A DNA stretch of 64,000 bases, taken from Candidatus Heimdallarchaeota archaeon (GTDB taxonomy: Archaea > Asgardarchaeota > Heimdallarchaeia > JABLTI01). Below, piece by piece: positions 1 to 16,520 of this stretch. Positions within the stretch are counted from its first letter, which is position 1. Every line of letters starts with the position of its first letter. The translations under genes were made by a program, and so were the position numbers. The notes under the pieces were generated by a model. That model did no database searches. It saw only the letters and a list, made by a program, of their open reading frames with translations, and was not told the origin of the DNA. The stretch lies in NCBI GenBank assembly GCA_018238155.1, contig JABCTZ010000025.1, positions 32,001-96,000 on the forward strand. The letters run 5' to 3'.

Positions 1-1533
1 GAAAATGGTTCACTGAATTTATTTGGGTATCACACAAGTATGGATTATAACGAAACCTTAGGTACAGGATTAAATGAATGGTATATGAAAGAAGGAACAA
101 AAATACTTCCTGCTGATTCTCAAGAGAGAGTAGAACATTATTGGGCATGGCAACAACATTTGATGGATAATCTTTTACCATGTTTACCTACTTTTTCTTC
201 GAAATCATATAGTGCTAATTGGGCAAATTTACAAGGATATAATTATACTGAAGGTCTTTTACAATCGTGGGGAAAAATGTCTTGGGATGGAACTCACACA
301 GGACAAGAAAATACAAGTGAAATAGTAATTGCTGATGCAGCATGGTCGGATTTAAGTCCATTTTTCCAAGATGATACTTCATCCTCATTCATAAGTTCAG
401 CAATTATGGATTCATTAATTCATTATGATTCAGATTTATCAGTTTGGTCAAATTTAGCAACTAGTTGGACACACATTTCTGACACACAAGTTAGAGTTAG
501 TCTACGAGAAGGTGTTAAGTGGCAAAATGATCCTGATGGAAATTTTACCAATGAATATTTTGATGCACGAGATGTCTATTTTAGTTATGATGTTTGGTCA
601 ACGTATAATTGGGATAGCAATAAATGGTTAGATCATATGGAAATAGTTGATGATTATACCATAGATTTCTTCATTGATGGTGATAGTGATGAACCCGGAG
701 CTCAACCTTCAACTTTATATCTGCCATCGTTTTCTGAGCTAATTTTGCCCGAACACTATCTTAATCAAACGCAATTGAGTAATGGAGTTACACCAGATAT
801 TTCTCATCCATCTTGGAATATCTTTGCTACAGAAGCATTTGGCACAGGATTGTTTTCATTAACTCACTTTGAAGAAGGCGAAGAAACTATTCTTACTGTT
901 AATCCTGATTGTTGGAGATTAAATACTTCGATAACAAGTGATCCAAATTTGAACTGGGAAGATCGTTTTGGCGATTTTTCTGGTGGTGTAAATCAATTGA
1001 GAATCAGAATTATTCCAAGTTCTCAAGAGTCTATTGCCGAATTAATAGCTGGTCGAGTTGATATTGAAGGAGTAACAATGGATAAAGATACACGAAATGA
1101 ATTAATCTTAAATCCCGATTTTAAAGTGCAAACTGTTATAAGCTCTTATTTTGCTTTTTTTGGTTACAATATGCGTCCTGCACGAGAGTATATTGGTAAT
1201 TCCAATCCAGCTCCAAATGACTCTTCATTATCAATTGGTTTAGCCATTAGAAAAGCAATAAGCTATGCTGTTAACCTTGAAGAAATGAATGAAATTATTC
1301 ACGAAGGAGAATATACTATTACTTATCATCCAATATATACTAAAATGGGTATTTGGTGCAATCCAAATATAATAAAGTATAAGCATGATTTAACTCAAGC
1401 AACAGAATATATGGTTATTGCTGGTTTTGGATCTGCACAAGGGGAAACAACAGCAACAGGAATAAATTGGTTCTACTCCCTTAGTGGTTTATTCTGTTTA
1501 TTAGGGATACTAATAATTTTCAGAAGGTCATGA
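1..1533 (+). CDS. ABC transporter substrate-binding protein, family 5 (OppA/DppA-like), circularly permuted, C-terminal membrane anchor; 5' partial
   Basis: Frame is open from base 1. Motifs LREGVKW..D, FGTGLF, GRVDI, IRKAISYAVN; hydrophobic C-terminus followed by RRS. Confidence 0.85.
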   Translation, partial: ENGSLNLFGYHTSMDYNETLGTGLNEWYMKEGTKILPADSQERVEHYWAWQQHLMDNLLPCLPTFSSKSYSANWANLQGYNYTEGLLQSWGKMSWDGTHTGQENTSEIVIADAAWSDLSPFFQDDTSSSFISSAIMDSLIHYDSDLSVWSNLATSWTHISDTQVRVSLREGVKWQNDPDGNFTNEYFDARDVYFSYDVWSTYNWDSNKWLDHMEIVDDYTIDFFIDGDSDEPGAQPSTLYLPSFSELILPEHYLNQTQLSNGVTPDISHPSWNIFATEAFGTGLFSLTHFEEGEETILTVNPDCWRLNTSITSDPNLNWEDRFGDFSGGVNQLRIRIIPSSQESIAELIAGRVDIEGVTMDKDTRNELILNPDFKVQTVISSYFAFFGYNMRPAREYIGNSNPAPNDSSLSIGLAIRKAISYAVNLEEMNEIIHEGEYTITYHPIYTKMGIWCNPNIIKYKHDLTQATEYMVIAGFGSAQGETTATGINWFYSLSGLFCLLGILIIFRRS

Positions 1534-1546
1534 AGATTTCACATCT

Positions 1547-1577
1547 AACGGGTTTCTAACAACCGTTCCTTTTTTTA
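1547..1577 (+). terminator. Putative terminator (hairpin + T tract)
   Basis: AACGGGTT...AACCGTT followed by CCTTTTTTT just after the stop. Confidence 0.5.
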
Positions 1578-1702
1578 TGGACAAATAGGATATTGTATTA
1601 TTTGTTTCATATTTCTTCTTTTATTTGCTATTTTGTGCTAAAATAATATTTATATTACAAAAAAAACGATTAGGCTTATTGAGTTAAATTGAGGAATTAA
1701 TT

Positions 1703-4195
1703 TTGAGAAACTTTAGAGTAAAAATAATAGAAATGGTAAGTATTGCATTGTTGATGCTTCTCGTAGTATCTGCTACGAGTTTTAAAGCATTAGGTTATTT
1801 AGGAAATAATCAATCTGCTTTTTCAATTAAAACAACCGGAAATGTTGTTGATGATTTTACTACAGATCTCTTCCGAGATGCATCTTCAGACGTTTTTGGT
1901 TGGGGAAGTGGAACATTAACAAATGAGCGAGACTTTTCTGTTACAGTTCTCGATTTCTATGACACAAAATATCCTGTAAGGGGTCTCGACGTGCAAGGAA
2001 GAAAAGCCTATGTTGTTCAATACAATAAATCTAGTTCTACAGATTCTGTAGGTTGTTTTAGTATTAATGATCCCACTGATATCCAATTATTAAGTACTAG
2101 AAATTCTTTATCTAAGTTGATGTCAATTGCTGTTGATGGAGATGTAATCTACGCAGGTAGAAGCCACGTAAATCAAATATTTAACACCTATAATGTAACA
2201 GATCCATTTAATTTAGGTGGAAGTAGTGCCTATTTAGACTTTGTAAATGGTATTGGTAATGTTACAGATATTGAACCTGATGGTCATTTTGTATATTATG
2301 TTCAATATGGAGACTCTATTGGTAAATCATTCCGCATAGTTGATGCAGCAGATCCAGACAATCTAATTGAGTATATACCAAATTGGAGTTCTGATAAAGC
2401 ATTGGGTTTAGACATTGTTGATCATCTAGCATTTATAGCTGCAAGTGATGATGGTTTCTATATCCTAAATAAGACGGACAAATATACTCCCATAGAACTG
2501 GACCATGTTAATCTTCAGGGCAACTGTACGGATGTTCTTGTTGAAGATAATATTGCTTATGTAACCCTAGGTATTGAAGGTATTGCTGTTCTTGATGTCT
2601 CAGATCCAACAAATGCCATTGTTATTGGCACAGTTAGTACTGGTGATTCTCTAACAAAGATGGCCTTACAAGGTAATACACTCTATGCAACTGCTGGTCT
2701 TGGTGGAGTAAAAGTTTTTGATGTTGCTGATCCAACGCATATCACTCTTGTGACAGGTATATCTATGCCATTTGCTTGGGACATTGACCTATATGGTGGT
2801 GTTGTAGTTGTAGGTTCAGAAGAAGGCATCCACACTTTCCAAATTGGAGAAGTAGATGATTTCTCTACAAGTTACTATGAAAATACTTTCGACGACCTAG
2901 AAGTTTGGGATGTTCGAGTAATTGGCGACATAGCATACATCGCTGGTGGTCCAGATGGTTTCTATACATTGAACGTTAGAGATCCAAATAATCCTATTCT
3001 CCTTGATCATATTGATACCGTTGATTCATTTCCTTTGAATAAAATCGATGTTGGAGGGCAATTCGCTTACTTAGTTGGTCCATGGAATTGCACTTCAATT
3101 GATATTCGTGATCCAACCAATTTAAAGATAATAGCTGATGGTTCAGGAAACTCTCTTGGAGATGTTTTTGTAAATGGAGAAATAATTTACATTTCATGGG
3201 AACAAGGTGGATACGCATGTCTTAATGTAACGTTTCCAAAGAACTTTCTAATCACACCTGCTTATGAATTAGATGAACCACACTTTGGAAGTAATATAAC
3301 ATCTCTCTGGGTTCAAGATTACAAAGTATATTCTGCCAATTATATTGGAGGTGGTGGTGGTGGATTATTCATAAATGATCAAAGAAATTTGAATAGTCAT
3401 CAGTTAATAAGTACATATATACATAGTGCTTACAATCTCGATCTAAAAGTTGATGGAGATCTCGCTTTTCTAGCAGATACCACTTGGTGTGTGGCAATCA
3501 ACGTGACTAATCCTAGCAACCCAACATTCATACAAGATCTTAGAGATAATGCAAATGCTTTGATAAAATCAAATTGTATTTGGAATTTTGGTCCTTATGT
3601 AATTACAGCTGGTCCAGATGGAGTATACCTTATTGAGACATCAGATTTTACTTCTCCTTTGGTTTCAACACAATATAATTATACTGCTGGTGCATTAGCA
3701 GTTACTTCTGCCGGTGATTTCACATATGTTGCAAACAAATCGAATTTAATTATCTTAAGACATTTCAAGAGCGCTGCAGACACTTATTTTGATACCAATA
3801 ATCTTGCTCAATCGAAATCAATATTCTCTATGACAAATAGTTCAATAAGTGCTGCGACTTTACTCGTTGATCTCTACAATCCATGTACTGATCCAACAGC
3901 CTTATCATTTGAGATGACAGCTGATGGAGTAAATTGGGAAACAGTTACACCAAACACCTTGCACAACTTTGACAACACAGGCTCGGATTTGCGTTGGCGT
4001 GCTGTCTTCAATGGTGCAACTGATAGAAGCCCTCACCTTTATCTAGTTGAAATCTCTTTTGAGTATAAGACTTCATTCCCTCTTAGTCTACTTTGGATTG
4101 GTATTATTGCTGGTGGTTGTCTACTATTAATCATCATAATCATTGTAGCTGTAGTAGCAATTTCGAAAAGTAAAAAGAAATCATCAACCAGATAA
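1703..4195 (+). CDS. LVIVD-repeat beta-propeller surface protein, copy 1
   Basis: Signal peptide, many (A/G)Y(V/I)...G(L/I)x(V/I)(L/F)DVSDPTN repeats, C-terminal TM helix + KSKKK. Confidence 0.85.
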   Translation: MRNFRVKIIEMVSIALLMLLVVSATSFKALGYLGNNQSAFSIKTTGNVVDDFTTDLFRDASSDVFGWGSGTLTNERDFSVTVLDFYDTKYPVRGLDVQGRKAYVVQYNKSSSTDSVGCFSINDPTDIQLLSTRNSLSKLMSIAVDGDVIYAGRSHVNQIFNTYNVTDPFNLGGSSAYLDFVNGIGNVTDIEPDGHFVYYVQYGDSIGKSFRIVDAADPDNLIEYIPNWSSDKALGLDIVDHLAFIAASDDGFYILNKTDKYTPIELDHVNLQGNCTDVLVEDNIAYVTLGIEGIAVLDVSDPTNAIVIGTVSTGDSLTKMALQGNTLYATAGLGGVKVFDVADPTHITLVTGISMPFAWDIDLYGGVVVVGSEEGIHTFQIGEVDDFSTSYYENTFDDLEVWDVRVIGDIAYIAGGPDGFYTLNVRDPNNPILLDHIDTVDSFPLNKIDVGGQFAYLVGPWNCTSIDIRDPTNLKIIADGSGNSLGDVFVNGEIIYISWEQGGYACLNVTFPKNFLITPAYELDEPHFGSNITSLWVQDYKVYSANYIGGGGGGLFINDQRNLNSHQLISTYIHSAYNLDLKVDGDLAFLADTTWCVAINVTNPSNPTFIQDLRDNANALIKSNCIWNFGPYVITAGPDGVYLIETSDFTSPLVSTQYNYTAGALAVTSAGDFTYVANKSNLIILRHFKSAADTYFDTNNLAQSKSIFSMTNSSISAATLLVDLYNPCTDPTALSFEMTADGVNWETVTPNTLHNFDNTGSDLRWRAVFNGATDRSPHLYLVEISFEYKTSFPLSLLWIGIIAGGCLLLIIIIIVAVVAISKSKKKSSTR

Positions 4196-4203
4196 ATCAA
4201 ACT

Positions 4204-4245
4204 TGGGACGAACATTTATTCGTCTCACATTTCTTCTTTTTCTTT
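4204..4245 (+). terminator. Putative terminator, repeated after both LVIVD genes (second copy about 6842-6880)
   Basis: TGGGACGA..TCGTCTCA stem followed by a T-rich tract; near-identical copy after 6833. Confidence 0.5.
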
Positions 4246-4319
4246 CTCTTTGTGCTAAAAAAATATTTATATAAGTAAAAAAAGAATTTATTTTTATAGG
4301 TTATTTTGAGGGTTAAATA

Positions 4320-6833
4320 TTGAATAAAATTAAGATAAAAATAACAGAGATTGTAAGTATATTTTTGTTGATGTTTCTTGTAACCTCTTCTACTTGTTAT
4401 CAAGTATCAAGTTATTTGGAAAATAATCAAACACCTTATACAATTAAAACAACCGGAAATGTTGTTGATGATTTTACAACAGATCTCTTCCGAGATGCTG
4501 CTTCAAACGTTTTTGGCTGGAAAAGTGGAACATTGACAAATGAAAGGAATTTCACTTGGGCAATTACTGATTTCTATCCAACTGATAATGAGATAAGAGA
4601 TTTGGTGGTTCAAGGAAGAAAAATTTATGCTACAGGTTATAATGACACCACCTCATTAAAGTCTGTTTTAGCTTTTGATATTAATGATCCTTTAAATATC
4701 AAGCTATTGAGCACAAGAACTTCAATGTCTGGTTTACAAGTAGCAGCTATTGATGGAGACATTTTTTATGGTGGCAAAATTCCTTCATCTATAACACCAA
4801 TTAGTGCTCTTGGTGTTTATAATGTCAGCAATCCCTACGATTTAAATGGACTTGGTGTGTATCTTGACGGAGTTTTTCCAGACGGACTTGTAACTGATAT
4901 TGCTTTTCAAGGTCACTTGGTCTATTATACATCCTTTAATGATACTATTAATAGATCATTCAGACTGGTTGATGTCAAAGATCCATATAGTCTTATTGCA
5001 ATCACACCAGAGTGGGTGAATAATAAAGCACTAGGTTTAGAAGTTGACCGTCATTTTGCTTATATTGCAGCAAGTGATGATGGATTCTATATTTTGAACG
5101 TTTCAAATAAAAACTTCCCCGTAGAGGTAGGTCATCTATCACTTTCAGGAAATGCTACTGATGTTCTATTAGATGGTACTGTTGCATATGTTACTTTGGG
5201 AGATGATGGTATAGCATCAGTTGATATCTCTGACCCTACAAATCCACAATTATTGGGAATAAACCAAATAGGTGGCTATTCTAGACATATGGCTTTACAA
5301 GGAAATACTTTATTTGTTTCAGGTGGTGCTGCTGGATTACGAGTCTTTGATGTTGTAGATCCTACACATATTAGCTTAGTACTTGAAGTTCCATTTCCAT
5401 TTGTTTGGGATGTTGAATTATTTGGCGATAAGGTTGTAATTGGAACAAGTGATGGGATACACATTCTTAGCATTGCAGCAGTTGGCGGTGGATTTACTGA
5501 TCTATCAAATACTGAAACAGTAAGCTTTGATACTGGTTATGATGTATTAGATGTTGAAGTTAAAGGCAACATAGCTTTCATTGCAGGTGGGTTAGATGGT
5601 TTATTCACTGTTGATGTGTGTGACCCTATGAATCCAGTTGTTTTGGATCGTTGGAATGCGACAGGTGCAAACTTCCGAAAATTAAATATTAATGGTCAAT
5701 TTGCTCATTGTGTTGACTATTTAGGTGCAGAATATATCTTTGATATTACAGATCCAAATAATATAGAGTTTGTTAGAATTATTACAGGAGTGTTAATGAC
5801 AGATGTTATGAGTATTGGAGGATTATCATTCCTATCTTTAAGAGATATGATTGCTATAGTTAATAATACGCTTCCCGCAGAAGCATTTTCTGTCGTAGAT
5901 ACTTATTCGATAGGTACAAATATCACTTGCATTTACGTCGTTGGTCGTTTACTCTTTATTGCAGAATATTTGAATGGCGCTTCTGGTTCTGGCTGGCATG
6001 TTTTTGATATACGAGATCCATGGAACATAAAACATATCTTTACAAAATCAGGAGTGACATCTTGGCATAATGAATTGGTTGTTGAAGGTGATATATTATA
6101 TACCGCAAATGGGCGATGGTTACATCTTTGGAATATCTCTGATCTAACAAGTGTTAGCTTGATTGATTATATCAATTATGGAGTAGGTAATATCGTAGTT
6201 TCAGACATCCAACCTTTTGGTACTAACATATACTTAGCAAAGAAGTCCTTTGGTGTAAACGTTGTTAACGCTACTGATGTTGCTAATCTCATTGAAGGGT
6301 CAACTTATGCTCCTGCAACTGGAGCGTTGAGTTTAGCTATTTCTGGGGACTTTTTGTATATTGCAAATAAGACCTCTCTCATTATTCAACGATTTTTCGA
6401 GAGTGCAGCAGATACCTATGTTAATACCAATAATCTTGCTCAATCGAAATCAATGTTCACCATGCCCAACGGTTCAATAAGTGCTGCAACTTTAAACATT
6501 GATCACTACAATCCAAGCAAAGATCCAACATCACTAACCTTTGAGATGACAGCTGACGGAGTAAATTGGGAAACAGTTACACCAAATACCTTGCACACCT
6601 TCACTAATACCGGAACAGATTTACGTTGGCGTGCTATTTTCAATGGTGCAGAAGATAGAAGCCCTCATCTTTATCAAGTTGAAATCACTTTTGAATTTGA
6701 GTATAAGACTTCATTCCCTCTTAGCCTACTTTGGATTGGTATTATTGCAGGTGGTGGTCTGGTGTTGATCATCATAATCATTGTAGCTGTAGTAGCAATT
6801 TCGAAAAGTAAAAAGAAATCATCAACCAGATAA
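4320..6833 (+). CDS. LVIVD-repeat beta-propeller surface protein, copy 2 (tandem paralog)
   Basis: Same architecture as 1703-4195; N- and C-terminal segments nearly identical. Confidence 0.85.
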   Translation: MNKIKIKITEIVSIFLLMFLVTSSTCYQVSSYLENNQTPYTIKTTGNVVDDFTTDLFRDAASNVFGWKSGTLTNERNFTWAITDFYPTDNEIRDLVVQGRKIYATGYNDTTSLKSVLAFDINDPLNIKLLSTRTSMSGLQVAAIDGDIFYGGKIPSSITPISALGVYNVSNPYDLNGLGVYLDGVFPDGLVTDIAFQGHLVYYTSFNDTINRSFRLVDVKDPYSLIAITPEWVNNKALGLEVDRHFAYIAASDDGFYILNVSNKNFPVEVGHLSLSGNATDVLLDGTVAYVTLGDDGIASVDISDPTNPQLLGINQIGGYSRHMALQGNTLFVSGGAAGLRVFDVVDPTHISLVLEVPFPFVWDVELFGDKVVIGTSDGIHILSIAAVGGGFTDLSNTETVSFDTGYDVLDVEVKGNIAFIAGGLDGLFTVDVCDPMNPVVLDRWNATGANFRKLNINGQFAHCVDYLGAEYIFDITDPNNIEFVRIITGVLMTDVMSIGGLSFLSLRDMIAIVNNTLPAEAFSVVDTYSIGTNITCIYVVGRLLFIAEYLNGASGSGWHVFDIRDPWNIKHIFTKSGVTSWHNELVVEGDILYTANGRWLHLWNISDLTSVSLIDYINYGVGNIVVSDIQPFGTNIYLAKKSFGVNVVNATDVANLIEGSTYAPATGALSLAISGDFLYIANKTSLIIQRFFESAADTYVNTNNLAQSKSMFTMPNGSISAATLNIDHYNPSKDPTSLTFEMTADGVNWETVTPNTLHTFTNTGTDLRWRAIFNGAEDRSPHLYQVEITFEFEYKTSFPLSLLWIGIIAGGGLVLIIIIIVAVVAISKSKKKSSTR

Positions 6834-7418: not shown

Positions 7419-8762
7419 CTATTTTCCACTTGAAAATTTAGTAGAACCTAAAAGGATCATAGGTGATTTCATTCCACCCTCAATAAGAAGGTCTTTCCCA
7501 ACTAATTTGATATTCTTCAGAACATCATAGACAGTTGTTCCAAGCATAGTATTCTTTATTGGGAATTTTATTTCGCCTTTTTCTACCCAGAATCCGACAT
7601 CTACTTGCTGACTAATATTTGTACCAGTCATAGCAAATACTGGGCTTTCCAGATAGATTCCTGTACCAAGTTCTGCAAAGAGCTCATCTTTTGATGCTGT
7701 ACCAGATTCAATTTGAATTTGTGTTAAACTTGGTTTTGGTATTCCGCCATATCCTTGCTTAGTAGCGCTTCCAGTATTTGGAATATCCAATTTCTTAGAA
7801 GTATAAACATCGCTCAGATAGGAAAGTAATGTTCCTTTATCTACAATAGAAATCTTTTGTGTTGCTGTGCCTTCGTCATCGAACCTTCGACTACTTGAAC
7901 CACCAGTTTGGAGTGGGTTATCAATAACAGTTAATTCCGGACTAGCTATTTCTTCTGCAAGTCTATCATTAAAGAAAGCGGTTCCTTGGATAATATTGTA
8001 AGCAGAAACACCTCGAGAGAGTATTCCACCAACAGTTTGGCGAGTAGCTCTTTTGTCAATTAAAAGAGGATATTCACCTGAATCAATTTTTTGTCCACCA
8101 AGGTTGTTTAGAGCTTTATCTGCAGCTTTATGACCTATTTCTGTTGGATCAATCTTCTTGAGTGAACGAGCGAAACCGTATTCATAACCAACACCAATAT
8201 CATCATCTTTGACTATTTTATTATTGATGAAAACAGTCATAACAGTACCATTTGTTTTAGCAAGAACACCATTTGAATTAACTATGACTTTGCTACCAAC
8301 AAATAATCCTACACTCCCACTTACATTCAAAGTAGCTTCTTTTTCTAGGGAAGCATTTAATGCTTGAATAGCAATTTCAACCAGTTTATCACTGCTTAGA
8401 GAGGCTAATTCTTTGTTGTATAACCCCTTAACTACCGGATAAGACGTAACCTTTGATGCAAAACCAATATTATCGGGATTTGGGCTAGACACTTTAGCTA
8501 AAGAAACAGCATCTTTTACCATTGCGTCCAATAAACTATCATCAAATTGAGTTGATGTACTTAGTCCAATTGCTTTGTTAATTAAAACACGCAATCCTAT
8601 ACCAGTTTGGCTTTTACTATTTGCTTTAACAATACTGGATTCTTCAAGGTTGATTGACATTTGTTTTCCTTGTATAAGGACCACTTCAGAATGTTCTGCA
8701 CCAAGTTTTTGAGCCATTTTATTTACTTTTTCAGCAAGAGCTACGATAGTATTATCAACCAT
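7419..8762 (-). CDS. pmbA: TldE/PmbA family protein
   Basis: GIGLRV, FDDEG, TGSA motifs; no HExxxH; directly follows tldD. Probable start ATG 8762. Confidence 0.9.
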   Translation of the reverse strand: MVDNTIVALAEKVNKMAQKLGAEHSEVVLIQGKQMSINLEESSIVKANSKSQTGIGLRVLINKAIGLSTSTQFDDSLLDAMVKDAVSLAKVSSPNPDNIGFASKVTSYPVVKGLYNKELASLSSDKLVEIAIQALNASLEKEATLNVSGSVGLFVGSKVIVNSNGVLAKTNGTVMTVFINNKIVKDDDIGVGYEYGFARSLKKIDPTEIGHKAADKALNNLGGQKIDSGEYPLLIDKRATRQTVGGILSRGVSAYNIIQGTAFFNDRLAEEIASPELTVIDNPLQTGGSSSRRFDDEGTATQKISIVDKGTLLSYLSDVYTSKKLDIPNTGSATKQGYGGIPKPSLTQIQIESGTASKDELFAELGTGIYLESPVFAMTGTNISQQVDVGFWVEKGEIKFPIKNTMLGTTVYDVLKNIKLVGKDLLIEGGMKSPMILLGSTKFSSGK

Positions 8763-8763
8763 T

Positions 8764-10155
8764 TTACCTTCCTCCAACAACTAGATCTTTTACTGCAAGT
8801 GCAGGACCACTACCTGTTACAGGCATCCATTGACCACTTTTACCACAAGAACCATTGAAAGCTGCTTGTTCTAGTTTTCCAACACCAATAGTATTAGTTA
8901 ATACTTCCATGATCATTCCGCTCATAGAAACGTTCTGAGTAATTGATTTTTGTTTGCCTTTTTCGATTATATAGCCATTTTGTGATGAGAACATAAACTG
9001 TCCCATAGCGGGGTTAACATAACCACCATAGGATTTTTCGAGGTACATTCCATCGCCAATGATTTCAAATAATTCTTCAAGGCTTTTATCACTACCTTCA
9101 ACAAAGGTGTTACCCATTCGGGCAAGAGGTGGAAATCGAAAGTCCATTGCTCTTCCAGAGCCGTTGGGTGTTTGTCCAAGTATTGTTGCTGTTTCTAGCG
9201 TGTGGAAAAATTCTTTTAGAATGCCTTTTTCAACCAATTTTCTTGGAACTGCTTTTGTTCCTTCTGAATCATAAGCAAAAGACCCTCGCAAACCTGGAAT
9301 GGTAGGATCATCTACAATGCTTATCTCTTCAACACCAACTTTAGTATTCAATTTGTCATGAAGAATAGATCTTTTAGTAATTATTCCATCTGCCTCACAA
9401 GCGTGGCCAAAAGCTTCGTGTACGAACACACCAACAAGACTTGGATCCATAACTAAATTCATTTTACCACTTTTTGGTTTATCTGCAGAAAGAAGGTCAA
9501 CAGCTTTTGTGCCAACTTCTTTTCCTATTTCATCTACATTGAAATCCATAATGGTTTTTATTCCAATAGATGAAGCAACATTTTCACCAACGTTCTGTTG
9601 TAAATTACCTTCTCGAGCAACAGCTCCTCCAGATAATCGAAAAACACCTGATTCAGTTGAAACATCTGTACCATTCGTTGAAATAATATCTTCAGAATTA
9701 ATTGTTTCTAAATAAATCGCTCGAGAAGTTGCTATTCTCTTATCTACCTCTCTAATTGTTTTTTCAAAATCTTGAGTGATTTTCATCTTCTCTTCAATAA
9801 AAATATCCTTTGGATTAAGATCAAAAGAAATTTTTGATTTTCCTTGAGTCGAGAATTCAGGATTTATTTTTCGAGGTTCTTTAACCTTTTCAGAGGCAAC
9901 TTTTGCCATTTTTACTGCTGTTTTCAAAGTTTGTGTTAGTGTATCCTTTGATATATCAGCAGTTGTCGCAAGACCCCATGCTCCTCCCACTAAAACCCGT
10001 ACTGCGGCTCCTCCCATTCTATTTGAGGTTACTTCTTCTGTAATTGCGTTTTTAACAATCATATTCAATGATTCTGAATGTTGGAAACGAATATCAGCAA
10101 AACCGCCCGTGCCAAGGTCTATTTCATCCAATATTTTTCGGGCATAATCCTTCAT
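8764..10155 (-). CDS. tldD: TldD family metalloprotease
   Basis: HEAFGHACEAD, YDSEG, RMGNT, CGKSGQ. Confidence 0.92.
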   Translation of the reverse strand: MKDYARKILDEIDLGTGGFADIRFQHSESLNMIVKNAITEEVTSNRMGGAAVRVLVGGAWGLATTADISKDTLTQTLKTAVKMAKVASEKVKEPRKINPEFSTQGKSKISFDLNPKDIFIEEKMKITQDFEKTIREVDKRIATSRAIYLETINSEDIISTNGTDVSTESGVFRLSGGAVAREGNLQQNVGENVASSIGIKTIMDFNVDEIGKEVGTKAVDLLSADKPKSGKMNLVMDPSLVGVFVHEAFGHACEADGIITKRSILHDKLNTKVGVEEISIVDDPTIPGLRGSFAYDSEGTKAVPRKLVEKGILKEFFHTLETATILGQTPNGSGRAMDFRFPPLARMGNTFVEGSDKSLEELFEIIGDGMYLEKSYGGYVNPAMGQFMFSSQNGYIIEKGKQKSITQNVSMSGMIMEVLTNTIGVGKLEQAAFNGSCGKSGQWMPVTGSGPALAVKDLVVGGR

Positions 10156-11644: not shown

Positions 11645-12067
11645 TTGGAATTAGAAAAACTTATTGGAAAAATTGCTGCGACTAAAAATAGTAAAAGAAT
11701 CGGAAGAATAACTAGAATTGAACGATTACCACATCTTTTAACAAAGAAGACAGTTCCTTATGTTTTCATCTTTGTTCAACAATTTATGAAAAAGGATGCT
11801 TTGGTGCCATTACTCGCAGATAAAATACTAAAGGTAGAAGGGAATTATGTGTGGTTCGATATTTTGAAAAAAGACTTTGATAAAAAAGTAAAATTTCATC
11901 GACTGAAAAATCGAGGAAACTTTGCAGATCATGATAAATTTTTAGATTTTACTGCTAATGTAAGGAAAGAGTATTTAGCATTGAATATCAGTCCAGCTCT
12001 AAGAAAACAAGAAAGAAGAAGAGGAAAAAAAATTATTTTCGAATCCTGTTCTTTTTTGATTTCCTGA
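11645..12067 (+). CDS. Basic hypothetical protein, possible PRC-barrel fold
   Basis: LIGK...KRIGRI pattern and VP...I.KVEG are PRC-like; overlaps the convergent gene by 35 bp. Confidence 0.5.
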   Translation: MELEKLIGKIAATKNSKRIGRITRIERLPHLLTKKTVPYVFIFVQQFMKKDALVPLLADKILKVEGNYVWFDILKKDFDKKVKFHRLKNRGNFADHDKFLDFTANVRKEYLALNISPALRKQERRRGKKIIFESCSFLIS

Positions 12068-14507
12068 AATGTGTTTCTATAAAACCTGCTTGTAAACTTG
12101 ATAGTAAAAGTTGAATACCATCAGTTAATTCTAGCAATGTTTTACTTTCAAAATCTCTTTTTTGCAAGATTTGTATTTCCTCAAATAGTTCTGGGTGGAA
12201 TTGCAAAGCGTAATCTCTTTTTATCATATTTGTTTTAGGATTATAGTAATAAATGACCATGCCAGCTATTTCAGTTAAATAATCTCCATCTTTACTATCT
12301 GTGCAATAAAGAGTTGAGCTAGGTATTTCAAGACCAAATGGTAAAGATGTTAATTCTCGTAAATTCTCATTTTCAAATAGTATCTCGAAATTCCTTTGGG
12401 AAAAGTCAGCTATTTTTTTAAAGGTCCAATTGAAAAATAGCACTGCTTCTTCATTTACTTCATCACCGTGCAACATAATTATATCTAGAGTTTCTAATGA
12501 ATAAAGATCTTCTAGTATTCCAGTTTGAAATTTGGCTGTTTCGTGGTATTCATCAAGCAAAGGTTTTGGATTCTTAGAAGTATCAGGTTGGAATTTTACT
12601 AATTTTTTAAGCCCTACTTCTGGTAATTCATTTCTTTTTACTGCAAAATATTGCCCTTTCAAGCCTGTTGCAATGATTTCTTTATTTCGATTTTTAACAA
12701 TTAGTTTATTCCCTTGTGAGTTTATTTCGTCAATTATTTTCAAAAACTCTTCACTGGCAACGGTACTCTTTTTTAAGATTATTTTAGCAATTTTCTCTGC
12801 TTTTTTGCTTAATCCTAAAATATAATCCCTAAATGTTTCTGCTACACCTTGATGCCCTAAACAAATGAAAAGTGCGGGGTTGGACCCAGGTGTATTTCTA
12901 GCTAAAACAATTGAACGTAGCAAATGCAGATAGTCTTTTCTTTCAAAGTTCCCTTTAGAGATCTCGGTAAAACTTTGGCTATCATAGAGTGATTGTCTTC
13001 CTCCCTCAACGATAACATATCTAAATGATCGCAAAAACTCTCCTACTGATTCGCCAATACAATGTTCTTTGACTTTTTCGAGAAACTTACTATAATTCAT
13101 TTCAGATAATTCAAGTATAACTACATTCCAGTCAAGTATTTCCTTTGTAATTGTAGCAAAATTTTTTGATGCATCTATCAGCTCACCCCATTGGTTTGAG
13201 CCAATAACAGTGTCAGGTTTTAAAATAATGGCCCACTTGCTTCTTTGACTTGGTTTTTTGAAATGACTCTTGTATATTTTTTCAAATTCTTTTACAGACC
13301 TGATAACAATTTGTTGCGTTTCTTTTTTATTCAAAAATCGTTGGATTTTCTGCAATGAAAGTTCAAATGGTAAATTGAAGAAAGGATCTTTTAGTGGAAT
13401 AGAGTACCCTATTAGCTTTTCAAATTTCTTTCTACTAGAATTAGATCTAAAATCAACTCCTGCAAGAAAAGCTATTTTTATGAAAATATCCAAAGGGATT
13501 TTGATTTTCTTAGCGAATTTTTCTAGCTCGTTCTTATGTCCTAAAAGGAAGGAGAGTTTTATTTGACTATGTGCAATACTAAAATCACCTGATGGAATAG
13601 CTCCTTTCAGTATTGGTAACCAAGCGTTTTGGTAAACGAAATCTTGAGTGCCCAAAGGAGTTTGTGAAGATAAGATAACTATCTTACCATTTGTAATCGC
13701 TTGTTCTATTGCGGGTAAAGGTGAATAACCAGATTTGACATCAGTGTTTATTGTCCCACTTCCATAGGCATTCAAAATTATTCCATCAGCAGTTGCAAAT
13801 CTATTCTTGTAATCATCTTCGGTCATCATTGGTGTAGTATTGACCACAATTATCTTTGGATTAAATTTGGTATCACAATAAGTAGTAAATCCAGCATCTT
13901 GGCATTCTTTAGCAATTCTTTCACAAATAGCAAACCAAGAATCTAGAATTAGGTCAGAAGAATCTTTGGACATTAAAGAAATTGATTCAAATTCTTGGTA
14001 GAAATCAGAGAATTTTTGTGTAATATATTCTGAAATTAGATTGGCTGTTGGAGTTAACACTCCATCTTCATTGGGTTCAGATTCGATTGTTCCCCCAGTT
14101 CTAATAAGAAATAATTTATCCAATTTACGATTTAAATTCAAGGGAAAGGCTCTACCACGAATGAAAATTTCATCTGAAGTAATCCTCGCAAGCTCTTCTC
14201 CACGGAAAGCATCGGGCGACCACTTGTCAATTTTCCAGAGGTCATCTTGAAATGCAGCTTGACCATTATTGAATACTACGAAAATATTTGGTCCTGTAAG
14301 TTGTGTGAGTAATTTAATTGAATTCTCAACATTAGGATAGACATCAGAAGAAGAAAATTGCATGCTCAATGGCACTTGTGATCCGGTAATAGCTACATTT
14401 GCAGGTAGATTCTTGAGCGTATATCTAATTGCACTTAGTGCCCAGGACATAGAATCTGTTCCATGAGTTAAAAGAAAACCTATTTTTTTGGAGTATTTTC
14501 GCACCAT
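12033..14507 (-). CDS. Permuted asparaginase/glutaminase fused to a class I glutamine amidotransferase domain
   Basis: THGTDS, TGSQ, K..DAF, TGGTI, KDSS and YGSG asparaginase motifs; ICLGHQ, HGDEV and QFHPE GATase motifs. Probable start ATG 14507. Confidence 0.85.
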   Translation of the reverse strand: MVRKYSKKIGFLLTHGTDSMSWALSAIRYTLKNLPANVAITGSQVPLSMQFSSSDVYPNVENSIKLLTQLTGPNIFVVFNNGQAAFQDDLWKIDKWSPDAFRGEELARITSDEIFIRGRAFPLNLNRKLDKLFLIRTGGTIESEPNEDGVLTPTANLISEYITQKFSDFYQEFESISLMSKDSSDLILDSWFAICERIAKECQDAGFTTYCDTKFNPKIIVVNTTPMMTEDDYKNRFATADGIILNAYGSGTINTDVKSGYSPLPAIEQAITNGKIVILSSQTPLGTQDFVYQNAWLPILKGAIPSGDFSIAHSQIKLSFLLGHKNELEKFAKKIKIPLDIFIKIAFLAGVDFRSNSSRKKFEKLIGYSIPLKDPFFNLPFELSLQKIQRFLNKKETQQIVIRSVKEFEKIYKSHFKKPSQRSKWAIILKPDTVIGSNQWGELIDASKNFATITKEILDWNVVILELSEMNYSKFLEKVKEHCIGESVGEFLRSFRYVIVEGGRQSLYDSQSFTEISKGNFERKDYLHLLRSIVLARNTPGSNPALFICLGHQGVAETFRDYILGLSKKAEKIAKIILKKSTVASEEFLKIIDEINSQGNKLIVKNRNKEIIATGLKGQYFAVKRNELPEVGLKKLVKFQPDTSKNPKPLLDEYHETAKFQTGILEDLYSLETLDIIMLHGDEVNEEAVLFFNWTFKKIADFSQRNFEILFENENLRELTSLPFGLEIPSSTLYCTDSKDGDYLTEIAGMVIYYYNPKTNMIKRDYALQFHPELFEEIQILQKRDFESKTLLELTDGIQLLLSSLQAGFIETHFRKSKKNRIRK

Positions 14508-14586
14508 CTCGTTTGTCACATCCGTGTTCAATTAAAAAGAAACACATTTAGAAAATAACTATTCTATGGTTATTTACCTTTTTTAC

Positions 14587-15621
14587 TCACTTGCTGTTTT
14601 GGAAGACAAAAGCAATCAAATTAGCAACAATGTTTGCATAATAACTAGATGAAATAGTAATGTCCTCAGATCCATCTACACGACTAAAAGTCAGTTTGAC
14701 TGAACCTTTTTTATAAGCTATATTTTGAACAAATTTCACTGCACGAGCCCAGATCTTTCCATCTTCGGAACCAAAAAGAATTCTTGAATTTGTGATAAAA
14801 CAATCACAAGGAATAGTACAATTAAAAGCACCATCAACTTTTTCGATATTCCCCCAGAAGAGGATTTTCTCAGTTTTTGAATCAAAACCAGGAATAACAA
14901 TTTTAATACGATCTTCTAAATCGATTATGGATGTTTCACGAATAATTTTAACACCAGTATCACTTCTTGCTCTTGTTTCCAAAGCAGGAAGCTTCTTAGT
15001 TATTTCTAACAATTCTTGCAACAATCTGTCTGAGAATCTAATCATTGTTTGAGATCCATTTGATCCTTTAATAAACAAAGCATCTTTTATCCCTAAAATA
15101 AGTGCTATTGGTTTATCGTTAGAAATGGTATGAATATTACATTTTTTCTTTGATAAAACATCTCGTAAATCATCAGAGATTTCTAAGTTGTTATCTATCC
15201 AAGCTTCCGGAAATTCATTATCTCCAATTATTGAAGAAATTGAACTAAAATTATTGAAAATCATAATAGGTGATACGTTGCTCTTCTGCGTAGACTTTTC
15301 CTGTAATCTAGAAATTCCTTTTTTAACACCTTTTATTGTAGAAACAATTGAATCAATTGCATTGTCAATGGTATTCTCTGGGGGAAGAGCTCTGAAGAGC
15401 ATTCCTTTTTCTATTGGAACTTTTGCTATAAATCCAAGCTCTATTAAACTATCTAGAACAGAATAAACTTTAGCTCGTGGTACTCCAGATTCCTTTGCAA
15501 TCAAATAAGCAGTAGCTTCACCTAAGACAAAGCTAGCAATGTATACTTGTGCTTGATATCTTTGCAATCCTATCTGTGTTAAACCATCAATTAGCTTATC
15601 GTCTATTTGCATAGCAATCAC
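14587..15621 (-). CDS. TrmB family transcriptional regulator with C-terminal PH/GRAM-like domain
   Basis: GL..YQAQVY...IAKESGVPRAKVYSVLDSL..LGF...FRALPP is a TrmB wHTH; C-terminal CFITNSRILF. Confidence 0.85.
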   Translation of the reverse strand: MIAMQIDDKLIDGLTQIGLQRYQAQVYIASFVLGEATAYLIAKESGVPRAKVYSVLDSLIELGFIAKVPIEKGMLFRALPPENTIDNAIDSIVSTIKGVKKGISRLQEKSTQKSNVSPIMIFNNFSSISSIIGDNEFPEAWIDNNLEISDDLRDVLSKKKCNIHTISNDKPIALILGIKDALFIKGSNGSQTMIRFSDRLLQELLEITKKLPALETRARSDTGVKIIRETSIIDLEDRIKIVIPGFDSKTEKILFWGNIEKVDGAFNCTIPCDCFITNSRILFGSEDGKIWARAVKFVQNIAYKKGSVKLTFSRVDGSEDITISSSYYANIVANLIAFVFQNSK

Positions 15622-15755: not shown

Positions 15756-16520
15756 GTGATGAAAAAAAGAACTAAAAATAAACAATTCATAAATGGTTTC
15801 ACAATAATAATGTTTATTTTCTCAATTCTATTTGCTTTCCCTACAATAATTGAAGGGATAAATGTAAAAGTAAACTATCAAAGTTACATTGGAAGTAATG
15901 AAAATATCGCTCCTGGATCTTACAAAGTTGTGAAATTCGATTTAAAGAATAGTTATAGATTCAAGTTAATTGTTAGAGGTGAAAATTCAACAGGAACTAA
16001 TTCTACATCTAATGGTGATCATTATTATCTTGATTATAATCAAGTTCCAGTTGTTTTTGCATTACTAGCAGAAAATGAATTTTTAGATTGGCATAATTCT
16101 GGTGAGAATATACCAAATATAATCAATTCAACATATAGTTATACTGGAGAATTTATAAATTTAGAGAATATTGGGATCAAAGAAGAAAGTGATTATTATT
16201 TCATATTCTTTAATGCCAATCCATATGCAATTGATATTCATATAGATTTACAGATAACCCCTTGGGGTCATATACTAGCAACAAGTATAGTTGGTTTTGG
16301 TTTCTCAATATGTTTCTTAGCTTTACTAACAAAAATAGGTTTCACAATCTTTTATACAGTATACACAAAAGATAAACCAAAAATACTTACAGTTCAATCA
16401 CAAGGCAAAACTGAAGCAGTTTTACAACCAGAAAAAGAAGAAAGTTTTTGTGTTTCTTGTGGTGCACCAACAACAAAAAAAGATGGTCGTTATTGTCCAA
16501 ATTGTGGTTCATCAACATGA
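15756..16520 (+). CDS. Membrane protein with extracellular beta domain and C-terminal zinc ribbon
   Basis: N-terminal TM, YYFIFFN beta strand, second TM, FCVSCG...YCPNCG. Confidence 0.75.
   Translation: MMKKRTKNKQFINGFTIIMFIFSILFAFPTIIEGINVKVNYQSYIGSNENIAPGSYKVVKFDLKNSYRFKLIVRGENSTGTNSTSNGDHYYLDYNQVPVVFALLAENEFLDWHNSGENIPNIINSTYSYTGEFINLENIGIKEESDYYFIFFNANPYAIDIHIDLQITPWGHILATSIVGFGFSICFLALLTKIGFTIFYTVYTKDKPKILTVQSQGKTEAVLQPEKEESFCVSCGAPTTKKDGRYCPNCGSST

Follow-up and report, generated by a model that had tools for sequence, protein, structure and literature searches.

Does the gene at 12033–14507 of the stretch analysed here (64,000 nucleotides of contig JABCTZ010000025.1 from Candidatus Heimdallarchaeota archaeon, hereafter the window) encode a genuine enzyme, given that the catalytic motifs of its asparaginase-type half stand in a non-canonical order and that this half is fused to a putative class I glutamine amidotransferase (GATase)-like domain? 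We confirm that the asparaginase N-terminal domain (N-domain) is circularly permuted. Canonical residues ~74–185 are placed ahead of ~1–73, and both threonines, the aspartate and the lysine are retained. The permuted order is kept in all 35 relatives compared, which come from independent assemblies. The protein probably acts as an amide-cleaving enzyme with two separate active sites, as argued below.

The open reading frame (ORF) covers 12033..14531 on the minus strand and is open from an in-frame TTG at 14529–14531 (832 codons). Residue numbering starts from this TTG throughout, and the ATG is residue 9 (M9). In the homolog alignment, every homolog begins at the residue aligned with M9; therefore, 12033–14507 is the likely span of the gene. 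The gap between the ORF and the upstream TrmB-family gene is 55 bases, which leaves no space for a lost N-terminal piece. The gene and its parts are as follows.

12033..14507, minus strand: permuted asparaginase–GATase gene, 824 amino acids from the probable start ATG at 14505–14507
14148..14492, minus strand: segment A (residues 14–128), second half of the canonical N-domain, with HGTD (T25, D26), TGSQ and the catalytic Lys100
13884..14123, minus strand: segment B (residues 137–216), first half of the canonical N-domain, relocated after segment A
13497..13874, minus strand: asparaginase C-terminal domain (residues 220–345), in its normal position (PF17763, E 3.8e-12, residues 227–340)
13326..13496, minus strand: helical extension and linker (residues 346–402), with model helices at 347–356, 364–374 and 389–400
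12072..13325, minus strand: divergent class-I GATase-like domain (residues 403–820), placed by Pfam, VIA-align and conservation

From the N-terminus, the protein carries T22-H-G-T25-D26-S, T49-G-S-Q52, K100/K103...D107-A-F, T145-G-G-T148-I, K189-D-S-S192, Y256-G-S-G and S289-S-Q, and the codon positions of these motifs were verified directly in the DNA. The canonical linear order is TGGT, DSS, HGTD, Lys and C-terminal domain, whereas the order here is HGTD, Lys, TGGT, DSS and C-terminal domain. Segment B carries the TGGT nucleophile strand (T145, T148 and the family-specific E150), a hairpin loop and the DSS motif (D190–S192). The Pfam profile PF00710 matches residues 11–122 with an E-value of 8.3e-22, and these residues correspond to profile positions 71–185 of 193. 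Pairwise comparison by phmmer with the L-asparaginase of Pyrococcus furiosus (4q0m) pairs query residues 7–111 with 66–166, 139–208 with 3–70 (a match that is weak taken alone) and 219–339 with 195–313, and places K100 against the region of the catalytic Lys in 4q0m. A six-frame scan of the genome with PF00710 gave the same picture at the DNA level: within the gene, profile positions 50–185 (E 8.4e-15) sit 5' of profile positions 1–75 (E 1.2e-6).

Conservation was evaluated in an alignment of 70 sequences, in which 35 permuted modules and 60 GATase-like domains were scored. Thr25, Asp26, Lys100, Thr148 and Asp190-Ser-Ser occur without exception in these 35 modules, and position 145 is Thr in 32 of them and Ser in the remaining three. 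A 36th permuted sequence, P0037, is N-terminally truncated and keeps all catalytic residues that it covers. The helical extension (346–402) is also kept in the alignments of the receiver-fused bacterial relatives described below and is therefore part of the permuted-asparaginase module.

A structural model is in agreement with the permutation. A first AlphaFold run with 15 close homologs gave predicted local distance difference test (pLDDT) values of 30–60 over the permuted N-domain and was superseded by a run with the 70 sequences, which gave a mean pLDDT of 92.1 and a predicted template modelling score (pTM) of 0.82. The elements of this model follow in the order HGTD strand, helix, TGSQ strand, helix and Lys100 strands, then TGGT strand, hairpin, helix, DSS strand and helix, and finally the C-terminal domain, which is the canonical asparaginase order, rotated. 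VIA-align superposed model residues 14–367 on residues 74–328 of the Thermococcus kodakarensis asparaginase (5ot0) with a Z-score of 23.0 and a root-mean-square deviation (rmsd) of 2.5 Å over 241 residues. The alignment with the GatD structure 1zq1 begins at GatD residue 167, and the asparaginase C-terminal domain matched 4nje_B with a Z-score of 14.1 and an rmsd of 1.9 Å. That a sequential aligner finds no partner for canonical residues 1–73 is as expected from a permutation. The initial annotation had read the gene span, the motif order and the permuted catalytic domain with its retained residues from the sequence, and all of these were borne out by HMMER/Pfam, alignment, conservation and the model. 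Two of the checks that it had named, structure prediction and the motif order in homologs, gave elements in rotated order and permuted relatives throughout; homologs in the standard order, which it had taken as the sign of a local misassembly, were not seen.

The permuted module is predicted to dimerize. Class-1 asparaginases form an "intimate dimer", in which the active site lies where the N-domain of one chain meets the C-terminal domain of the other (the N/C' interface), and such dimers have been solved. For two copies of residues 9–400, the homodimer prediction scored 0.83 against 0.00 for the best control. Among proteins of solved structure, 20 of 30 same-chain pairs attained this mark, compared with 1 of 23 single chains. 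At least 98% of contacts were shared between the runs, and the pLDDT of the partner was at least 87. In the predicted interface, T25–S27, K100–S105 and K189–L196 of one copy face loops 254–264 and 289–297 of the other. Asp26 in segment A of the second copy and Ser192 in its segment B are both contacted by Thr260 of the first, so that both permuted halves would meet in one pocket closed by the C-terminal domain of the partner. The prediction may draw on memory of solved asparaginase dimers, and it is a sign of likeness and not of binding.

The C-terminal half contains the motifs E509-G510-G511, I556-C557-L-G-H560-Q and Q777-F-H779-P-E781, along with ~180 inserted residues, mostly helical, at about 578–609, 656–676 and 694–728. 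E-G-G (509–511), Cys557 and His560 are kept in ~94% or more of the 60 GATase-like domains, and His779-Pro-Glu781 in all but one. Pfam GATase matches occur in 14 of 15 family members scanned, at sub-threshold E-values. Some of the stand-alone relatives exceed the PF00117 threshold (e.g., P0053, 28.7 bits), and P0053 also gave the one weak match to PF07722 (Peptidase_C26). In an hhalign comparison with the GuaA-type GATase of the same genome, E-G-G and Cys557 were paired with S-G-G and Cys. The match to the canonical GATases of this genome is short and local (E 0.0012, probability 18.8%, 47 columns), which makes it a weak test of homology, and a sequence search of the PDB with the C-terminal half alone returned only a chance match (E 0.2). 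At positions 438–440, the alignment has K438-P-D440 in the fused proteins and E-x-W in the stand-alone proteins.

The fold of this half is clearer in the model. VIA-align matched the GATase part with 3l7n (Z 16.5, 204 of 234 residues aligned), 1o1y (Z 16.2), Arabidopsis γ-glutamyl peptidase 1 (GGP1, 9k7i; Z 16.1, 215 of 245 residues) and PabA (8rp0; Z 15.4, 186 of 188 residues), and the alignments with 3l7n, 1o1y and PabA each cover 87–99% of the reference chain. Further matches were obtained with GMP synthase (2ywb, Z 14.7), CTP synthase (7dpt, Z 14.2), γ-glutamyl hydrolase (Z 13.3) and SpuA (7d50, Z 13.1), and Foldseek also matches the GATase part. Between GATases of the peptidase type and those of the amidotransferase type, the Z-scores lie less than 1 to 3 apart and do not separate the two. 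Motifs and model together support the assignment of the C-terminal half to the class-I GATase fold, with a putative Cys-His-Glu set and large insertions. No synthase partner domain that could accept ammonia was found in the chain, nor was a conserved neighbour of this kind present in the loci examined.

The relatives of the protein form two branches. The closest are 24 proteins of ~815 amino acids, 54–88% identical where full-length, from JGI, ENA, NCBI and Logan, all labelled as Heimdall, Gerd, Thor or "Asgard group" metagenome-assembled genomes (MAGs). The gene lies on seven named Heimdallarchaeota contigs, and the motif order is identical in 15 Heimdall homologs of 53–88% identity. When 1.84 billion proteins were searched exhaustively with a profile of the C-terminal half, only 113 representatives were retrieved at E ≤ 0.001. 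Ten of these are divergent fused proteins (740–840 amino acids, 27–37% identity), each of which opens with a permuted asparaginase (Pfam positions ~79–170 at residues ~5–100), and many others are stand-alone GATase-like proteins of 350–500 amino acids. The second branch consists of bacterial proteins of ~543 amino acids, in which an N-terminal receiver domain is followed by the permuted module; these receiver-fused or solo forms are 35–41% identical and keep the permuted order. Examples are P0025 and P0030 from Gram-negative bacteria (L002:8001–9635 and L022:6001–7635). The nearest Atlas neighbour, a 402-amino-acid Bacteroidota cluster, may be a solo form of the permuted module. A search for further fusion partners among longer proteins gave only the known fused family. 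Two imperfect copies were noted among the relatives. The homolog on MAG contig JAHLVW010000062.1 (L017:8001–10408) aligns in two pieces with a break at ~residue 146, in the TGGT motif, which may be a frameshift or sequencing error. In a genome of the same genus (G259), two stops lie inside the match to the GATase-like domain.

In a phylogenetic tree of sequences rotated back computationally, the 35 permuted sequences form one clade (100/100) apart from five canonical ones. With this small outgroup, the tree is consistent with a single permutation event behind all permuted sequences. The nearest Atlas clusters of the GATase-like domain are cyanobacterial "hypothetical proteins" of ~465 amino acids (clusters of 267 and 677), most named members in an Atlas feature search are cyanobacterial, and no characterized member was found for this branch of GATase-like proteins. 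Of 301 genomes sampled within the phylum, 13 carry the domain: 7 of 10 genomes of the window's own family, 3 of 19 of a family with the stand-alone form only, and single genomes of two others. The permuted asparaginase was not found in three Asgard genomes with the stand-alone domain, which are 80–83% complete. Since the two modules occur apart, they are independent units that were fused in one lineage and are patchily distributed. The patchy distribution and the nesting among bacterial-looking relatives suggest that the Asgard genes were acquired by gene transfer and are not an ancestral trait tied to the origin of eukaryotes. The genome also encodes two canonical asparaginase-fold proteins, which are true GatD by score (546 and 511 bits, cut-off 310), so that the permuted gene is a further member distinct from both.

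L008:973–2364, minus strand: GatD paralog on contig C41 of the same genome, full-length
L009:1162–2637, plus strand: GatD paralog on contig C20 of the same genome, full-length

The gene neighbourhood contains a candidate regulator, and the TrmB gene and the TldD/PmbA (TldDE) pair that had been reported nearby are both present.

14587..15621, minus strand: TrmB-family helix-turn-helix regulator, directly upstream on the same strand as the permuted gene (PF01978, E 6e-16)
7419–10155: TldD/PmbA pair, a neighbour in the window

Seven Heimdall loci share the arrangement of a divergent gene for a 254-amino-acid membrane/zinc-ribbon protein, the TrmB gene, the permuted gene and a convergent methyltransferase gene. 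Conservation of the TrmB neighbour is confined to the window's own family, and the more distant Asgard carriers (33–36% identity) lack it. The TrmB-family regulator probably controls the permuted gene in its own lineage. No conserved link between the permuted gene and TldD/PmbA was found in the loci examined. Two roles had been proposed for the protein, namely Asn/Gln ammonia supply and β-aspartyl/γ-glutamyl isopeptide recycling, and gene context gives no support for either. The divergent fused, receiver-fused and stand-alone genes lie in unrelated contexts. In one organism, but not in two others, a receiver-fused gene has a Peptidase_S51 gene as its divergent neighbour, and the unannotated neighbours of receiver-fused genes include no hidden homologs of the GATase-like domain. 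The idea that the stand-alone GATase-like genes are halves of a split gene was rejected, as no permuted asparaginase lies beside them in the loci read. Among the stand-alone proteins, P0049, a GATase-like protein of 458 amino acids in a cyanobacterium-like context (L005:7001–8377 and L006:6532–7908), is encoded divergently to genes for a PGM1-type ATP-grasp ligase and an aminotransferase.

The protein belongs to both the asparaginase and the GATase superfamilies and to no described family in either, because it departs from the canonical motif order and stays below the cut-offs of TIGR00519, the GatD models and PF00117. It scores 79 bits against TIGR00519 (asparaginase; cut-off 260) and 70–74 bits against the GatD models TIGR02153 and NF003217 (cut-offs 310–324), and annotation pipelines that expect the canonical order under-score such permuted proteins. 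The module shares with class-1 type I asparaginases (4q0m, 5ot0 and Escherichia coli AnsA, 2p2d) the two-domain α/β fold (Z 23, rmsd 2.5 Å), the TGGT, DSS and HGTD motifs and the catalytic Lys. The predicted dimer is also alike, with the site between the N-domain and the C-terminal domain of the partner. The module differs from them in the swapped N-domain halves, in having Glu150 after TGGTI and no conserved counterpart of the flexible-loop Tyr that helps their nucleophile, and in the additional ~55-residue helical extension and second catalytic domain. GatD of GatDE (1zq1 and 2d6f, Z 22.1 and 20.9) shares the asparaginase-type fold and its catalytic residues and provides a precedent for this fold as an ammonia-producing module. 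Unlike GatD, the permuted protein has no GatD N-terminal domain, falls below the GatD cut-offs and is permuted, and no GatE gene lies nearby.

The GATase-like half resembles stand-alone class-I GATase-like proteins and γ-glutamyl peptidases (SMU.1228c, 3l7n; TM1158, 1o1y; GGP1; SpuA) over the whole fold (Z ~16), and likewise has the I-C-L-G-H-Q nucleophile elbow, the Q-F-H-P-E motif and the G-G oxyanion motif. It differs from them in its ~180 extra residues, its marginal sequence similarity, its fusion to an asparaginase and the small size of its family. In CTP and GMP synthases, the GATase domain is likewise C-terminal to another α/β domain, but the permuted protein has no ATP-dependent synthetase domain, and its N-terminal partner is itself a hydrolase by fold.

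We propose that the protein is, on balance, probably a cytoplasmic and dimeric enzyme with two independent amide-hydrolysing active sites and under TrmB control. The first site would be a class-1 (type I/GatD-like) asparaginase/glutaminase centre on the permuted N-domain, with Thr145 on the relocated TGGT strand as the putative nucleophile, aided by the Thr25-Asp26-Lys100 triad and the substrate-binding motif Asp190-Ser-Ser. As ordinary asparaginases do, it would rely on loops from the C-terminal domain of the second subunit to close its pocket. The second site would be a class-I GATase-type centre of Cys557, His779 and Glu781, which possibly cleaves a glutamine-type or γ-glutamyl amide via a thioester intermediate. 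Both sites may act on Asn/Gln or on small β-aspartyl/γ-glutamyl amides and release ammonia or an amine. The modules are read as independent hydrolases because they are separate evolutionary units that also occur apart. The use of the permuted module both as the output of a receiver domain and in fusion with a cysteine amidase points to a regulated amide-cleaving function.

Several observations weigh against this proposal. The loop after TGGTI (residues 150–165) has no conserved Tyr and carries the conserved Glu150 instead, and chemistry or substrate may thus differ from Asn hydrolysis. The Pfam GATase score (PF00117) is 15.6–18.4 bits, below the threshold of 22.8. Cys557 is absent in five relatives, three from the fused lineage (P0062, P0068 and P0092) and two stand-alone domains (P0085 and P0086). 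P0062 is a fragment without the N-domain, and P0068 and P0092 are complete, fused proteins that keep every asparaginase residue, so that catalysis by the GATase-like domain may be dispensable. A pTM of 0.82 is high for a chain of two modules and hints that the domains are fixed relative to each other, as would also suit coupled sites. No conserved neighbour in the loci examined points to a substrate, and it is from motifs and fold that we infer the catalytic activity of every family member.

These observations allow other readings of how the two halves work. The sites may act in sequence on one conjugate, a γ-glutamyl peptidase step (C26/GGP type) being followed by cleavage of a β-aspartyl or amide bond at the Thr site, or the reverse, which would amount to the recycling of an isopeptide or a γ-glutamyl-capped metabolite. 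Stand-alone GATase-like proteins, GGP1, SpuA and γ-glutamyl hydrolase are among the structural neighbours of the GATase-like domain. The weak Peptidase_C26 match in P0053, the lack of a synthase partner domain or subunit in the chain and loci examined, and a fusion that is rigid by model confidence are further points in line with such a sequence. We nevertheless consider it unlikely, since the Z-scores do not tell peptidase-type from amidotransferase-type GATases, the modules are apart in many genomes and no conserved neighbour names a conjugate. Alternatively, the asparaginase module alone may be the enzyme and the GATase-like domain a sensor or regulator (e.g., glutamine-binding), comparable to the receiver domain in the bacterial proteins. 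Cys557, His560, E-G-G and His-Pro-Glu are kept at the high frequency given above down to ~20–30% identity, and the catalytic motifs are also kept in the stand-alone proteins, whose chains contain no partner in cis that could be regulated. This is the pattern expected from selection on catalysis. A sensor role is likewise improbable in our judgement, even though the permuted module is constant while its partners vary (N-terminal receiver, C-terminal GATase-like domain or none), and even though the Cys is missing from the fragment P0062 and from P0068 and P0092, two complete proteins with all asparaginase residues in place.

The two sites could also be coupled in a cofactor-free transamidase, in which ammonia or a γ-glutamyl thioester from the Cys site would reach an acyl-threonine over a fixed inter-domain path, and the amide would be moved from Gln to an Asp-type carboxylate without ATP (Gln + Asp ↔ Glu + Asn). 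If so, the permutation would serve to bring the Thr145 strand beside the second domain. Formation of an acyl-enzyme from a carboxylate is unfavourable, Pfam detects no ATP-binding or substrate-activating domain in the chain, and the modules live apart in many genomes; we therefore hold coupling to be very unlikely. It draws on the fact that class-I GATases normally supply ammonia to a fused or bound acceptor domain and that the asparaginase module is the sole other domain in the chain. The high pTM suggests a fixed arrangement, and the difference between K438-P-D440 and E-x-W may mark a fusion-specific interface. Finally, the gene could be an artefact, namely a misassembly, a chimeric contig or a decayed GatD paralog. 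The host genome is a 4.08 Mb MAG in 46 contigs with ~91% completeness and ~6% contamination, and the related locus L017 has a frame break near residue 146. Misassembly was rejected because the permuted order is kept across independent assemblies; the same order and length recur in more than 35 proteins from JGI, ENA, NCBI and Logan. The frame is open over 832 codons, the catalytic residues are invariant, the model is confident and the genome separately holds two full GatD genes. An artefact is thus hardly credible. The reading that we prefer remains an enzyme with two independent amide-hydrolysing sites.

The architecture had been described in the initial annotation as one not recognized, and its reading of the C-terminal half as a class-I GATase with Cys-His-Glu residues and large insertions agrees with Pfam, VIA-align and conservation. 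We found no paper or curated family that describes the swap or the fusion. Our search of the literature on permuted asparaginases found only engineered permutations of unrelated N-terminal nucleophile (Ntn)-type enzymes, and nothing was found on asparaginase–GATase fusions or receiver–asparaginase proteins. The permuted form is not mentioned in a 2021 structural review or in the 2026 Asparaginase Database paper. Class-1 asparaginases are used as antileukaemic drugs and food enzymes, and their classification was taken up again in 2026. A natural and widely conserved permutation in which all catalytic residues are retained shows that the asparaginase fold can accommodate chain ends placed just ahead of the HGTD strand, and such proteins offer a scaffold for engineering. 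The C-terminal domain represents a small, distinct branch of the GATase-like proteins. For the receiver-fused permuted asparaginase, no description of such an output domain in two-component signalling was found.

The window contains further ORFs. A convergent ORF of 140 amino acids at 11645–12067 (plus strand) runs 35 bases into the end of the permuted gene. Pfam gave no match for it, nor did tblastn against the seven related loci, and for these reasons it is probably not a real gene. Three large tandem ORFs of 497, 830 and 837 amino acids lie at 40–6833 (plus strand). The 254-amino-acid protein that is encoded divergently from the TrmB gene (15756–16520, plus strand) combines a membrane segment at its N-terminus with a zinc ribbon at its C-terminus, and it occupies the same position in all seven Heimdall loci with 26–57% identity.

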